Below, in pieces: positions 6,844 through 39,340 of a stretch of 64,000 nt of DNA. The notes beneath the pieces were generated by a model. The model saw nothing but the letters and a program-made list of their open reading frames with translations. It searched no databases and was not told the DNA's origin. Made by a program: the position numbers and the translations under genes. The stretch is from Paraspadella gotoi (Eukaryota; Animalia; Chaetognatha). The stretch spans positions 19,355,657-19,419,656 of the forward strand of contig CM119266.1 in the NCBI GenBank assembly GCA_051294375.1. Reading direction: 5' to 3'. How positions within the stretch are numbered: position 1 is the stretch's first letter; each line of letters opens with the position of its first letter.

Positions 6844-18660
<11,817 letters not shown>

Positions 18661-20454: not shown

Positions 20455-23400
20455 TCACATCTTGGAGCCGTAGGCGGGGTTGGTGTAGGTCGAAGTGGCC
20501 TTCTTGTAGATGGGGTTCTCGCCCGTGTCCCACTTGGCGTTTTGTCGTTCCGCCTCGAATTTGGCAAACTCCCGTCGGTCGGTGATCATCGTGTAGAGTT
20601 TCCAGATGAGAAGGAGCGCCAGACCGATTGCCACGATACCTTATTGAGAATATATAAAATGAAAAATCAAATTCGAAACAATATTCGGCTTAATTTTACA
20701 TTCGCCGACGAGGGTTAGAGGGTTCGTGTAAAGTGTTGTTTAGGGCTTTAGGGTTAGGTAACAAATTTGGTTATTTTATTTTAATTTTAATACATTGTTA
20801 CTCATTTGAAGCGTCGGCGAACGTAAAATTTTAGCCACCATTTTTTTATTGCGTTTTTGTTCATTATTTTTTTTTTTAGTGATCCTTTCTCTCTCGTTTA
20901 CCGATAATGACGCCGAAGATGATGAACCAAAAGTCAATGTCTTGAGGACAGACTTTCTTTTCTTGCGATCGAATGTATATGTTGTTTTCTTGGTCGTATC
21001 GATAGGCGAAGAAAAAGCTGCAATCGTCAACTTGATCCTGATTGGAGAAATTCAAGGAGAATAATTTTAAAAAAAGTTAAAAAAGGTTTTTAGGTTAAAC
21101 GAAATTGTAAGGAGGAGGTGATGTTTTAAAGTGAAGAAAAGACACAGTTGGATTAGTTCGAGATTTAAATATTTTTCTGACAAAAAGTGTTGAGTTACGC
21201 TTAACAATAAAAACCAAAAAAATTTAAGAGATTGCGATAATGAATGTTTTATAATATATGGCTAAACTTTTATTACTTTTATAAACAGTAAAAAAAAATA
21301 TTAGTGATTTTTATAAAAATGATAAATTAATGTAATATTTACACTTGCTTTAGTTCAACTTCAATCAAACCCTCTCTGTCTTTCTTTCTTTAATGTCACA
21401 CGTTTATTGTGAGAATAAATCGTTTTCGAAAAGTTGATTAGGAATTTTTATGTCCGAAAGCCTCAAGGGGGGAAAACGCGGGAACACAAACGCACCCAAC
21501 AGCAGATTAATCACGATGTAAACATGCGGACTCACTAAAACTTCCTAAATTCAGAAATAACACTAATCTTTCTGGTTAGCTATCCAAAAAACAAGTATGT
21601 TAGAAATAGAATGAATGATTGACATCGGCAACAGAGTGTTGTGGAAGTGGCTTAAATCTTAAAAAATTTGAAAAAAATATTTTTTATACAATTATGTTAC
21701 AATTATGTTGCCTATTCTTGACTTGTAGAATTTTGATTGAGGCAAATTATTACTTTTAACTACGCTGTATTAAGACAATAAAATTTAAGAAAAACAAACC
21801 TTGAATTGACATCTACGAAATCCTAGTTCCTCCTTCACCTCTTCAGGTTCTGGCAACTTCTCTAAAGGGAAATTGCAAAGATCATCTGTGAAAAAGGAAA
21901 GTGATTTGGGTGGGAAATTGAGCGAACGTGAAACTAAGACGAAAAAAACAAGTGACCCCGATAATTTCCGAGACTTAAACCCAAAACATAATTTGTTTCT
22001 TTATTGGAACCCGCGCTCTACAAAAAAGTAAATCAATCACTTAGTTATTTTCTAAAGATTTTTATTGATTTTGACTATTTCCTCGCTTGTATGTATCATC
22101 GATGGTGACCAGTGACCACTGAGCAGAAGCAATCTCTTAATTCGCTTTTTCAATTTTAACATTTTTCACAGTAAACGATGTTCATACTTAAAACTTAAGA
22201 AATAAATGATAAATTATTGGGGGTTAGAACCGAAATAAAGACTTCGTCTTAGACAGGAAATAGGATGAACCGTAAACAACATTTTCGGAATGTGGACGAC
22301 AACAACAACAACTTTAATAGCCATAAATTCGACCGCAATTGCTTGGCTGAGAGGAGTCTGGATATTTTTTGTAGGAAGTTTAAAAATAGGCTATTTTAAC
22401 GATTTGAATATCCGTTATCTGTTATTTCTTAGATCGAGATATTCGGGAGAGAGAAGCCCAAATGACAATGCGTCACACGACCTAAAATTGCCAAAGGAAA
22501 AAAACCTATGACGAATGCAGTTCAAAGTCCGAACAGAAATAGAAATATTTCGTAATTTTATAACAGATTCTTCACCCGTTTTTCAAACTATTTTCATATT
22601 TTTGAACTGACGTCAAGGAATGTTTAAAGAGGTTTTTCCGAATACAATTGTTTTTTATTTCAACTTGTATTCTTCAATCAACTTGTCGTTAGTTTTAGCA
22701 AAAACCGGTTTTGACGACTTGCATCTACTAGGGATTTCTCCATCGCGTGCAATAACTACCAACTGTCTTGTAATTTAAAAAAAAAATTATAAATGGCAAA
22801 GTGTCGAAACCCTTTTCCACAGATAAATTGGAAAAGAAAAAAAGATAACACAGTTCCATTTTCGAATCGTTCATACTTCTTGACTGATAATAAACGAAGA
22901 GAATATATTGAAAAAAAAAACACCCAAAAACAATTAAATTAAAAAAAAACTCATAAAATGCAGTTTATTGCTGCTTTATTTAATCTTCCCTCGTTTGTCT
23001 CGTCCCTTAATATCGTTTTAATCTTCGTTATCGTCGCTTTCATCGTCATCATCGTCGATAAACTCCCGCGTTTTAAGGGATTCGGACGCACGACGATTTT
23101 AGGCGTCGACAGCATGAAAATAGACGCTTGTCCGGTGAGGGCGCTAACGTCAACGTCTCAAACTCTAAAGCAGACTTCGCAACAAGCTCTGCTTACATTT
23201 GCTTGCTTAGACGGTCTCGACTGGGAAGACGCGCTTCTTTACTTATTGATCTACAAACAAGGTCGGTCTTGCTTTAGACTTAGCACGGGCTTAGCTAGAG
23301 CCAAACTTTGTCAATGGGGTGGGTCAGAAGCACTAGTAATTAATTTTTTAATATTTATTTATAGATAGGAAATGTCAAAAATTTTTTTGAATTTTGTATT

Positions 23401-26400
23401 TTTAAAAGCAGATTCAGATAGCTTATTAAAAGTTGTCTACACAAAGTATAATTCTTTTTTCAATATTTTGATGATAAGTGGGTCAAAATTGGGAAAAACC
23501 TAAAAAAATCATTCTCATCATCATCATCCGAAGATTTTAATAGTTTTTGAGAATTTTTAATAATAAAACGTCAAAATTTTAAAAAATAAAAAACTTTTTG
23601 AGCTCTATCAGAATCAATTAAAAAAACTTAAAATATCTAAAAAAATTTTTTGACATTATATAGCAATATAATAATTTTAATTAACGAATTACTCATGGTT
23701 CTGAACATTTTTGCAAAAAAATATTTTAACACAATAACTAATACCAATAATGGATTCGTTTAATGCTGTTCCAATTAAAATTTAAATTTGGTCGGCTACC
23801 GCTAAGCCTTAAATTTGAAATTTAACTCAGGTTGCAAAATACTTAAACAACGACTTAAAATTGAGTTGAAAAAAAGGAATTTGGATTGGGAAACTTATTG
23901 TCGTCAAAACGATGAGTTCATCAGGTAAATGATTAAGATTTTGACAATTTTCTCACTTATGAAAAATTGACATATAACTTGTTTTATTAGTCTAAATTAG
24001 ATTATATTTTAAAATGAATATAAAAGGTTTATCATAAGTAATAAACTTAATTATTTAGATATTTATTTTATATTTAATAATGTAATGTGGATAGGCCTGT
24101 TAGCGATGTCTTCTAGAAATAGAAGGAGCATCTTATACAACACAAGGTTAAAAATACTTAATAGTAAGGCGTTGGCTTAAAACCCCAAGTCACCCCCATG
24201 TTATTTTGTCTAGAGTTTTATTGATGCCACTTTTTTCTTTTGCCAGGTCGTACCCTTCTTTCGACTGCAGCGCCATCGGTGATTCCGGGTATCCAGATTT
24301 TGAACGAAAAGACGTAACATTTCTCTCTTTCGTCTTGGCGCCAAATTTAACGACTGAGGGCGTCAGGCCACCTAGAGATCCGTTGCTATGTGACGAAATC
24401 TCGAAAAACGCCGTCGTCAGGCTAAAGGCTTTTCGAAATGAGCTCGCGCATCGAGGTAAAACAACATTGCAAAACAAAAAAACAAAACAAAAAAAAACCA
24501 TTAAAAACAGAAAGAAACAGAGAAAATAAAAGAAATAAATAAAGGAGCAGTTAAAGGAAAATATAAATACAATTTTTAATTTACATGATTTTATCTATTT
24601 ATATTTTTATAGTTAGAAGTGACGAGTGATATTTGCAAAACAAATAGTTTTTCATTTTTCCCGCTAGGCGACGACAAAAGAGCAAACGGAGAATTCGCAG
24701 CCCGATTCGTGGAAGTGAGAGAATGTCTTGACGAGATCATCGCAAGTGGAACCGGAAGCGATGGTGAAGATCGTCTCTCCTCAGAAAATTCCTTTAACGA
24801 GACTCTGGACATAATTTCAACAATTGCCCAAAATTTAAGCTCCATGTCAGGATGAAGCCGGGCCACGTCGGGGAGTCAACGAGCGATTTTGTACTTATCC
24901 GTTGCAGAAATCCTTAGCCTCGTTCATTGAAAAATCTTACACCATTATAAATTTTACTAGATATTTTTGAACACGTAATATTTATTTAAGATATCACTAA
25001 AGCTAATAAAAAACGAAGCCGAAGGCTGAAGAAACATCTTGGGCAGCAAATCATTTAGCTCGTATAATATTTCGATTTCATTATGTAAAATAAACTCACT
25101 CGTTTCGCAGTCATCGGCGAGGGATCCAGTTCCAAAAGTGAGACATTGCACACAATCTTTGTATTTGAAGCAAGTTCCCTCACACTTTGGACAGTCTTCG
25201 CAAGTTGGACCTCGGTAGTTGGAAGAAGTGTTGCACCTTGGATTGGAGAGGGAAGGACAGAATTGTATTGATGTGGGTACTGGTTACCGTCACCCATTAA
25301 CCAGTAACCAATAACCAGTCATACGAAAATCTTTTGTTTTTATTTCAACCTGCATGTTCCGCAAACGCAGACCCCGTGGTTGTTACAGAGTTCTCCGGTA
25401 GAGGCGATGCAGGTGGCGTTAGAAGTGGCGCATCCACAGTCGTTGCCCACAAAGCCGTCCTTGCATTCGCATCTGCCACAGACACAGGTGCCGCGATCAG
25501 CGCCACCGCAGAGTTCACTCTTGTATCGGTCGCAGCTGAAATTGTCGCATTCACAGAAAGGGCCGGTCACCACCTCGTTCTGGTAGAGAGGAAAAAGATG
25601 GGGGGGGGGAAGGAAGAAAGATTAATAAAGAGTCGTAGTCAAGGTTACCAATAAATACGGAAATAGACGGTAGATTAAACGGAATTAATATGGAATGGAA
25701 TGAATAAATAAACATAGGCGATAGGATAAAATAAGGAAAGAGAACTCTTTGAATAAAACCGCATCAGCACAAACTGGCAATTGGCTTCATAGCAATCAGG
25801 GATTCGCGAGAGAGTTATTTCCCTTTAAATATGGATGAAAAATTCGATCTCTGCGGACGTCAAAACCGTTTCTTTTTTTTTACCTCCATCTTTTTTTACA
25901 ACCACTTCGATGAAATTAGTACAACCAGTATAAAAATTATCCATTCATTTAAAGAAAATCCAAAGTTTAACTTTGTTTCCAAACAACGCTGTTTTCATTA
26001 AAACCGTCGTTTGTGATAAAAAAAAAAATTCAACTTTGTTTTTTCTCAATCTCTTACTAAAGGAAAAGAAAAGAAATTTATTTAAATAATAAGCTATCTT
26101 GCCCCTGACTTTGAACAGGCTATTGTGCTTTAAGGCCTCCATCACTCTTACAAGATAATAACATAGCAGAAACCCTGCAAAGCTTTCAATCAAGACTCTC
26201 TCTCTCTCTGTCTATTTATTCACTACCAGAAAACCTGTCTTCCCGATCAGTTTCATTTATCCTTTCATAACTAATTTTCTCCCCCGCCGTATTTTCTAAT
26301 TTTCTATAATCCTCCGTCATAAACGCTATTGTACTCTTTCAAACTATTTTATTAATTGAAGTTCGTTTATTCCAATAACGAATTGGCACACCTTGTTTTT

Positions 26401-37405: not shown

Positions 37406-39161
37406 TTAATGTTTTAAATGACAACAGGGTGGAAAAGATGCGGGCCTCCGATTGCTCTTGAAGGATTTCCACAGAAAAGCGACAATCTTCCCCACAGTTT
37501 CCGGCCGAGATTCTAACATTTCCATCCACTCGGTGGAAGTCATGACTTCCTCGCCGAACTCGACGAAACAGTGGAGGCTTTCCCGAAGCAGCACCGGCGC
37601 TTTGAATTCCTCGGCCAATGCCAGCGACTTCAGACAGGTTGTCGGCTTTACTTCCCTGGCCAAATGCTCCTGCGCGAATCGAAAAAGATCCTGGTCGTGA
37701 TAGCGGTCGGCGAGGAGCAGCAGGTCTTCAGCGTGGGGCTCAACCGGAAAACAGGAGCCGCTGTAGGCGAAGGTTATCCACTTGCGTACGACATCTGGGG
37801 AGACATCCGGGAGGCAGAGACGTCGATCTCGCGTTTCGATCACGTCGTGACGAAACATTGCGCCGAGGACGGGCGAGGACGATGACAGGACGGATTTATG
37901 GACGAAAAACTCCGCGTAGTCAGAAATACTTGGGAGGGCGAAGGAAAACCAACGGGTTGTGAATTAAGTTAAAGACACCCATGTGCAAAAAACTCTCAAA
38001 AGACGCTCAATAAAAATATTTTTACTTAATATACATAAAAAAATAGTTTTTTAAAAGAGGAATTAATAAGTATAATTTTATTTTAATCGGTAAAGTTTTT
38101 TAAACAAAAAAAAATGAATTTTAGAAACATTACCCTGCTACTATTGCATTTTTTAATAATCTTAAAATTGTTAAATAAGGATCTGGGTTAATCTTGTTAT
38201 CCAGTTATCTTTCCGGATATCCAATATAATTATTATAAATTTATAAGTTTTTTAATATACTACAAAAAATGTAAAATATAAAAAAAGATTAGTCTAAATA
38301 AATCAATTTTTTTTTATATTCAGTTTAGCTTTAGAATATTTTATTTTAAAAAATTCTGCTCTTTTATGGATGGTCCAATTTTTAAAAAATTTATGCTCTT
38401 TTTTATCAATAAACTATAATTGATATATAAATTATAATTATGTTTTATGGATTCAAGTATATAGAATAATTTTTTTGTAATTGTTGTGCTATAAATATTA
38501 TTTTTATATTTATTAAATTATTAAATGCACTGAAATAGACTTCGTTTAATTAAAATTATATTACAAGCTTATTTCAAGACCCGTCGATCTGTGATCCGAC
38601 GAACGGCTGTTTTCCCGCGCAGACGCGAAAATCAAAATCGTCGCTTTCGATCGGATAACATTGATAGCGTCGAAGGTCATCGATCGCCTCTCGATCGTGG
38701 ATCCGAAGATGGCATTTAACGACGCAAGGTTCCGCGGAGGGCAACCGTGAACGACGGCAGAATCTCGTCCAACCCTGACTCTCTGAGAATCGAATGTATC
38801 GATGACGCGTGGACCGGACCGCGATCGGAACCGCGCCCTCCCTCGCGGGGTTGTCGTCGAAAAGGCGAAATTCGAGGTCGATGTTGAATTTGGCAGGAGG
38901 TTCCAAATGGTCCGGCGAGATGCTGTCGATATGAAGGCCGAAATCCTCTTCGTCGAGGGTCGCGCGGACGATCCACTTGGAGCGGAAGAAGCCGACTCTG
39001 ATGATAAATGGGTCCGTCTTCAGGGTCGTCGTCGTAGTCTCCGTCGCTCCGTAGACGCAAATAGTGACCACGTTTATTTCCCGGTTTTCTATCCTTTCAA
39101 CGACTAAGCGAGGGCGATGGGACGGCGCAGCGGCGTAAGCTGCTCCTGCTGACGCTGACAT
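37406..39161 (-). CDS. SPOP/TDPOZ-like MATH-BTB protein
   Basis: Exon 39161-38581 encodes a MATH-like beta domain (KWIVRA, QGWTRFCRRSRL, VVKCHLRI) and the BTB start (DFDFRV). Exon 37928-37406 encodes EFFVHKSVLSSSSPVLGAMFRHD...FAYSG...AEDLLLLADRY. The phase-2 GT-AG intron joins them in frame. Confidence 0.85.
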
Positions 39162-39340
39162 GTCTCCGGATTAAGTTTCTCGATTTTGAAAAGAAAATTA
39201 AACTTTTTTCGAATCGCCTTTGTCCCGAAGTGAATTATTTCCAAGGGCGGCCGCTCGCGACGAGTTTTTTTCGACGATATTGTAATGATAAAAATTTGTT
39301 ATTCACCCACAATAAACACAGACTGAAACGATTTGTTGGG

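Follow-up and report, generated by a model that had tools for sequence, protein, structure and literature searches.

A small gene for a probable HEPN protein with a predicted membrane helix, nested in an integrin-beta intron of Paraspadella gotoi

A stretch of 64,000 nucleotides from the chaetognath Paraspadella gotoi (contig CM119266.1, positions 19,355,657 to 19,419,656; here called the window, with all coordinates counted from its first letter) holds a small gene that an earlier note, made from the sequence alone, had described as a stand-alone HEPN protein of the DZIP3 type. The locus raises the question of what a HEPN protein with no sensor domain might be: a free ribonuclease, a decoy or regulator of larger receptors, or something else. 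Our best reading, to which we assign a probability of about 0.4, is a membrane-anchored, 264-aa DZIP3-like HEPN ribonuclease whose gene has four exons and lies antisense inside an intron of integrin beta. The nesting had been proposed earlier and is borne out: the HEPN gene is spliced on the plus strand and lies entirely within the host intron (21886-25099, 3214 nt), which belongs to the minus strand.

The transcript

Splicing was assessed from contigs of one public sequencing run from one study (X1), aligned to the window. None of the runs is recorded as RNA; we take X1 for RNA because its contigs skip introns with canonical ends in both the HEPN gene and the integrin, which are read in opposite directions, the integrin host intron also being joined across. 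A contig of 1183 nt (depth 22.4) covers 22601-23259, exon 2, 24244-24453 and 24666-24885, with three GT-AG joints of 569, 322 and 212 nt, and in this run the HEPN gene has four exons. Exon 1 lies on the plus strand, and its coding part is 22958-23261 if the 264-aa form, the likely one, is made; ATG 23114 is a second in-frame start (212 aa), and the donor is joined in X1 across intron 1 (23262-23830, 569 nt, GT..AG). Exon 2 (23831-23924, 94 nt), joined on both sides, would encode part of HEPN helix 1 and is followed by intron 2 (23925-24246, 322 nt, GT..AG). Exon 3 (24247-24455), counted as the fourth exon in the earlier note, carries the conserved core with an invariant aspartate (24311-24313) and the Rx4H motif; beyond intron 3 (24456-24667, 212 nt, GT..AG), the last coding exon (24668-24855) ends in a TGA stop and would supply HEPN helix 4 and an acidic tail. 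The contig extends 30 nt beyond the stop, and the first AATAAA is found at 25005.

The gene had previously been assembled from five segments (23114-23261, 23831-23924, 24117-24146, 24247-24455 and 24668-24855), the third a 30-nt microexon. Their GT..AG ends, matching phases and open 222-aa frame stand, but the microexon is not confirmed: the contig joins exon 2 straight to the motif exon, skipping 322 nt, and its three GT-AG joints include neither joint of the microexon. By its recorded positions the contig allots 93 letters to exon 2 and none to the microexon, and the four-exon form over 22601-24885 amounts to 1182 nt, against the 1183 nt of the contig. Sequencing depth in the bin over the microexon (4.4) equals the skipping contig's own share (79 nt x 22.4 / 401 = 4.4). 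Coding scores here and below come from a Markov model that distinguishes reading frames and was trained on other genes of the window (1576 codons), with 1000 dinucleotide shuffles and 152 non-coding windows as controls (a block with an integrin exon was excluded); the microexon's score was reached by 374 of the 1000 shuffles, and we reject it as part of the main form. Intron 2 offers 12 comparable candidates, 9-60 nt long, which are flanked by AG and GT, keep the phase and contain no stop. A rare isoform containing the microexon may nevertheless exist, since contigs drop rare variants.

Upstream of the coding part, the 5' leader (22601-22957, plus strand) is unspliced in the contig, whose left end need not be the transcription start. 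It contains two upstream open reading frames, one of 52 codons from ATG 22620 and one of 49 codons from ATG 22793, with a stop at 22940-22942 that lies in the frame of the HEPN gene. Within the leader, the contig departs from the window sequence over an A-rich stretch at 22920-22935. Intron 1 encloses a repeat resembling a miniature inverted-repeat transposable element (23324-23704) with 65-nt inverted arms that are 74% complementary, over which many X1 contigs pile up to a summed depth of >2000.

Start codon and predicted membrane helix

The reading frame is open for 52 codons upstream of ATG 23114, back to the in-frame ATG at 22958. This extension scores 9.7 bits in frame against -6.9 in the best other frame, a value reached by three of the 1000 shuffles and by none of the 152 non-coding windows. 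It encodes a predicted membrane helix (22997-23056, plus strand; residues 14-33 of the long form) with an uncharged N-side and a net charge of +3 on the C-side. The helix has a Kyte-Doolittle 19-residue mean of 3.05, compared with 3.17 for that of the host integrin, and among 190 ATG-started 52-codon frames of the window the only one to reach a hydropathy of at least 3.0 is this extension. Under the positive-inside rule, an uncharged N-side with +3 on the C-side places the rest of the chain in the cytosol. The four bases preceding ATG 22958 are those preceding the ATG of the window's ADP/ATP carrier. An acidic reading of the helix region on the minus strand scored lower (best other frame 2.8 against 10.3) and was rejected, and a language-model search (Atlas) with exon 1 returned no usable match. 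Judged on coding signal and hydropathy, the 264-aa form started at ATG 22958 seems the better supported of the two, and ATG 23114 is probably not the start. The picture of a minimal free protein is not supported, as a predicted N-terminal membrane helix lies in frame upstream of ATG 23114.

The strongest competing explanation keeps the shorter start: a soluble solo HEPN ribonuclease of 212 aa from ATG 23114, acting as a free enzyme of defence or RNA turnover like the Swt1-type solos of Daphnia. An A at position -3 of that ATG is in its favour, as are the first 17 codons after ATG 22958, which are not coding-like (their score is reached by 711 of 1000 shuffles), and solo HEPNs do exist in animals (PMC3710099). 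We nonetheless consider it unlikely, as an open, coding-like extension of 52 codons with a membrane-grade helix would then be due to chance, and the X1 contig covers the upstream ATG.

The probable HEPN domain, its relatives and its architecture

The Rx4H motif reported at 24434-24451 is present there on the plus strand as RNELAH, which makes up residues 196-201 in the long form and closes a predicted helix. RN-x3-H occurs four times in the six frames of the window, and the motif alone is weak evidence; what raises it above chance is its conservation in relatives. When the motif exon was compared with 1.84 billion representatives, one relative emerged (E 6e-18), and a profile search found five among 60 candidates. 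These five are unnamed pieces of 67-110 aa from short ENA contigs, those of P0002 and P0004 measuring 1.3 and 1.7 kb. Over 65 columns they share 58-68% identity with the motif exon and 68-80% among themselves. RN[EG]LAH (RNxLAH) is kept in all six sequences, confirming the motif as intact, and the upstream aspartate is likewise invariant (6/6). In all five relatives similarity ends directly after the motif, and one (P0005) aligns from the first residues of the exon, which suggests that they share its edges. Neither 14 candidates nor the 7996 best candidates included a full-length relative, which both tools rate as weak evidence; viral contigs gave none, and sequence searches of the PDB gave no match at E up to 10. 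Three further candidates were discarded: two from JGI metagenomes (L001 and L002), where a first search had given nothing, matched over 23-25 residues only, without the motif, and one from prokaryote genomes (L003) matched only residues 15-38.

This conservation bears on whether the protein is an enzyme at all. A non-catalytic HEPN, serving as an RNA binder or as a decoy that pairs with the HEPN heads of receptors resembling nucleotide-binding leucine-rich-repeat proteins (NLRs), would suit a chain that has no sensor domain and whose catalysis is predicted from sequence only. Yet R, N and H do not vary among the six sequences, whose pairwise identity is 58-80%, and a decoy would have no need to retain them; nor is a partner gene seen in the window. 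We found no positive evidence for the decoy or regulator role suggested previously and regard a non-catalytic protein as improbable. An enzyme under maintenance accounts for the strong conservation of the core better than a decoy does, though a defence role and a housekeeping one are not distinguished by it.

Family assignment was attempted on exon pieces and the unspliced frame, against a gathering cut-off of 27 bits for HEPN_DZIP3 (PF18738). This was the top Pfam family for three of the six exon sequences (relatives 14.5-16.3 bits; best E 0.0086) and was also matched by the longer unspliced frame around the motif exon (E 0.027, 14.7 bits). In the relatives, the matched part of the 144-position profile runs from 32 to 96 and stops at the motif. 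The profile search that had been suggested as a check thus returned HEPN_DZIP3 as the best-matching family, but below threshold on these pieces. In the Atlas search the top two clusters carry HEPN_DZIP3 at a score of 0.91, with the family on 87% and 18% of their members. A HEPN_Swt1 cluster ranks fourth (0.89) and is a lead only; HEPN_Swt1 has no Pfam match on the exon pieces, nor does KEN, and DUF4209 has none in the six exon sequences at E up to 10, these being short pieces. One member matches CARF_HEPN weakly in PADLOC (E 0.041), and the NCBIfam scan gave nothing relevant.

AlphaFold2 was run on the six exon pieces, with only the 69-aa exon, half of the domain, folded. That model has a mean predicted local distance difference test (pLDDT) of 62 and a predicted template-modelling score of 0.33. 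In it the motif ends a confident helix (exon residues 50-67, pLDDT 83-90 by block), preceded by a short helix and a loop, and the invariant aspartate, residue 22 of the exon, lies just before a predicted helix at a pLDDT of ~50. The HEPN superfamily is characterised by a four-helix bundle with a conserved acidic residue in helix 2 and a conserved Rx4-6H motif, by homodimers that share a composite active site and by RNase activity that does not depend on metal. HEPN domains have been described as ordered helix 2, insert, helix 3, with the motif at the end of helix 3 (PMC3710099), and the helix order of the half-domain fits that description. A fold search of 48,161 chains gave a best Z of 2.3 (root-mean-square deviation 4.9, 56 aligned residues), which for a half-domain query is uninformative. 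The protein very probably carries a HEPN domain, and DZIP3-like HEPNs are its nearest family, without the protein being formally filed under PF18738.

Some other conserved helical protein with a chance RN-x3-H would account for the sub-threshold Pfam scores and for a motif that recurs in the window's six frames. Pfam and Atlas, however, independently rank HEPN_DZIP3 first, the relatives' Pfam match ends at the motif and the placement of the helix fits, all of which makes this explanation very unlikely.

The protein appears to stand alone. Its frame is closed within one contig by the in-frame stop at 22940 upstream and the terminal stop at 24853, so the transcript cannot carry a further domain. 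Pfam matched no NACHT or other STAND ATPase, no ankyrin or other repeat and no death domain in any exon, in line with the earlier view that no sensor domain is present, and the combination that marks a HEPN-NLR receptor, a NACHT or STAND ATPase with repeat or death domains in the same chain, is absent. When the plus strand was scanned for coding exons between 16400 and 22957, 14 candidates came up, of which 11 are antisense shadows of the final exon of the host, one is the final exon of a MAP2K-like kinase and two are weak (<7 bits). Beyond those shadows and the weak pair, no plus-strand coding exon lies between the last MAP2K exon (18516) and 22957, and with the frame closed no splicing into a longer multidomain transcript is seen. 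In the least probable explanation, our exons form only the 3' part of a gene for a longer receptor, spliced from further upstream, in which an ectodomain or sensor precedes the helix and the HEPN; the 5' part of the contig would then be a retained intron or outron. This view can point to a leader that is AT-rich like introns, the first 17 codons of the extension with their lack of coding signal, an acceptor-like AG at 23077 and 13 further X1 joints outside those listed, but is opposed by a contig that is unspliced over 22601-23259 with its in-frame stop and by the lack of any unexplained plus-strand coding exon upstream.

Against the membrane-anchored ribonuclease must be set, beside the start of the extension already described, several further points. 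All splicing evidence is a single contig of a single run. For the 18 codons that follow the helix the coding signal is only modest (reached by 49 of 1000 shuffles), the helix codons form an ATC/GTC near-repeat that could inflate a frame-specific score, and two ATGs further upstream in the leader each open an upstream reading frame. The relatives' pieces include no N-terminus, and the helix is predicted from this one gene. On exon pieces every Pfam score is under the cut-off (best 16.3 against 27 bits), the 69-aa motif exon alone has no Pfam match, and the Atlas matches share 164 and 155 features, compared with the 170 typical of matches within one family.

Under the membrane-anchored reading, translation would begin at ATG 22958 and an uncleaved signal anchor would fix the chain in an internal membrane, leaving the nuclease on the cytosolic side. 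Two copies would then pair, each contributing its R-x4-H motif to a composite active site like that of other HEPN enzymes, and the dimer would cut RNA near the membrane. In RnlA, paired motifs form one active site and the dimer is required (PMC8266594). As there is no sensor domain, control would have to come from clustering in the membrane, from a partner protein or from low translation behind the two upstream reading frames. A broader proposal, possible but doubtful, is that of a conserved animal subfamily of DZIP3-like HEPNs consisting of one membrane anchor and a nuclease: a kinase-free, sensor-free analogue of IRE1 that would be activated by pairing in the membrane and whose targets would be mRNA bound to membranes or the RNA of viruses at their membrane replication sites.

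Known HEPN systems and the genomic setting

The closest comparison is with the DZIP3/hRUL138-like HEPNs (PF18738), with which this protein shares the RN-x3-H motif, its best Pfam and Atlas match and an animal host. It differs in scoring below the Pfam cut-off on exon pieces, in having no full-length relative found and in having none of their fusion partners, which include TPR, RING, ankyrin, CARD, NACHT, death and LRR domains (PMC3710099, Table 1); their row in that table names no membrane helix. HEPN-NACHT fusions are reported from cnidarians, and from oysters receptors with a membrane helix, death-like domains and sometimes a HEPN (PMC8260672, PMC8195603). In the pearl oyster, DZIP3-like HEPN proteins without NACHT are abundant, and Rx4H is the commonest form of the motif (131 proteins), with N after R (PMC9646362). 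Solo HEPNs are described as well: the Swt1 type has expanded to 46 copies in Daphnia, and in Oikopleura there are KEN domains that stand alone (PMC3710099). These resemble our protein in their stand-alone domain and intact motif and have been proposed as defensive RNases, whereas they belong to other HEPN families and are described as expansions, and we found no paralogue of the HEPN gene within the 64-kb window. Given the solo animal HEPNs (PMC3710099) and those without NACHT (PMC9646362), standing alone is not the unusual trait it had been taken for.

Membrane-bound HEPNs comprise IRE1, C6orf70 and three bacterial groups, and have been proposed to cut RNA at the membrane (PMC3710099). With IRE1 (KEN), C6orf70/DUF4209 and the bacterial membrane-spanning HEPNs the protein would share a single membrane helix and a HEPN domain, here predicted to be cytosolic. 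It differs from IRE1 in having no kinase, no outer sensor domain and no KEN match on exon pieces. IRE1 is also far larger. In comparison with C6orf70/ERMARD, the single helix is predicted by hydropathy (3.05) and the exon pieces have no DUF4209 match. At most, the gene would resemble the membrane-bound HEPNs in its working, which does not imply membership. In the literature searched, mostly the main text of open papers, we found no description of a protein made up of only a helix and a DZIP3-like HEPN. No biochemical test of an animal DZIP3-like HEPN domain was found either, the accessible portions of that literature holding genomic predictions only.

Neither standing alone nor nesting is new, and it is the likely membrane anchor, missing from the earlier note, that deserves attention. 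A real membrane helix would mean that eukaryotes have, besides IRE1 and C6orf70, a third way to a HEPN RNase bound to membranes; without it the gene adds another solo HEPN, an ordinary finding. Because it is small, expressed and limited to one domain with a conserved motif, this member lends itself easily to tests of animal DZIP3-like HEPNs.

The window is intron-rich DNA whose genes include integrin beta, midnolin, septin, trypsin and a MAP2K-like kinase. On the minus strand, the last five exons of the integrin splice into an open frame that ends with a membrane helix and a cytoplasmic tail. Nesting is widespread, affecting nearly 10% of fly genes (PMC3814207), and with a second nested gene in this window it appears ordinary, so that the position of the HEPN gene in the integrin intron is probably incidental. 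The second nested antisense gene resembles midnolin and lies between exons of the MAP2K1/2-like kinase, which flank it on both sides (9819-18640, plus strand), across a gap of Ns at ~11200-12090. It is an intronless frame of ~1380 aa (12222-16397, minus strand) that matches midnolin in the PDB (E 2e-25), with midnolin matches at residues 111-246 and 1212-1263. Between these two matches lies an FHA domain (Pfam E 1.5e-14), which would place a phosphothreonine-reading module in a proteasome adaptor; a literature search found no paper with both 'midnolin' and 'FHA domain'. Elsewhere, adjoining MATH-like (weak, E 0.017) and BTB (E 5e-14) frames at 37406-39170 on the minus strand probably form a SPOP-like gene, and a high-copy repeat in an integrin intron (25910-26200) reaches a summed X1 contig depth of ~18,000.

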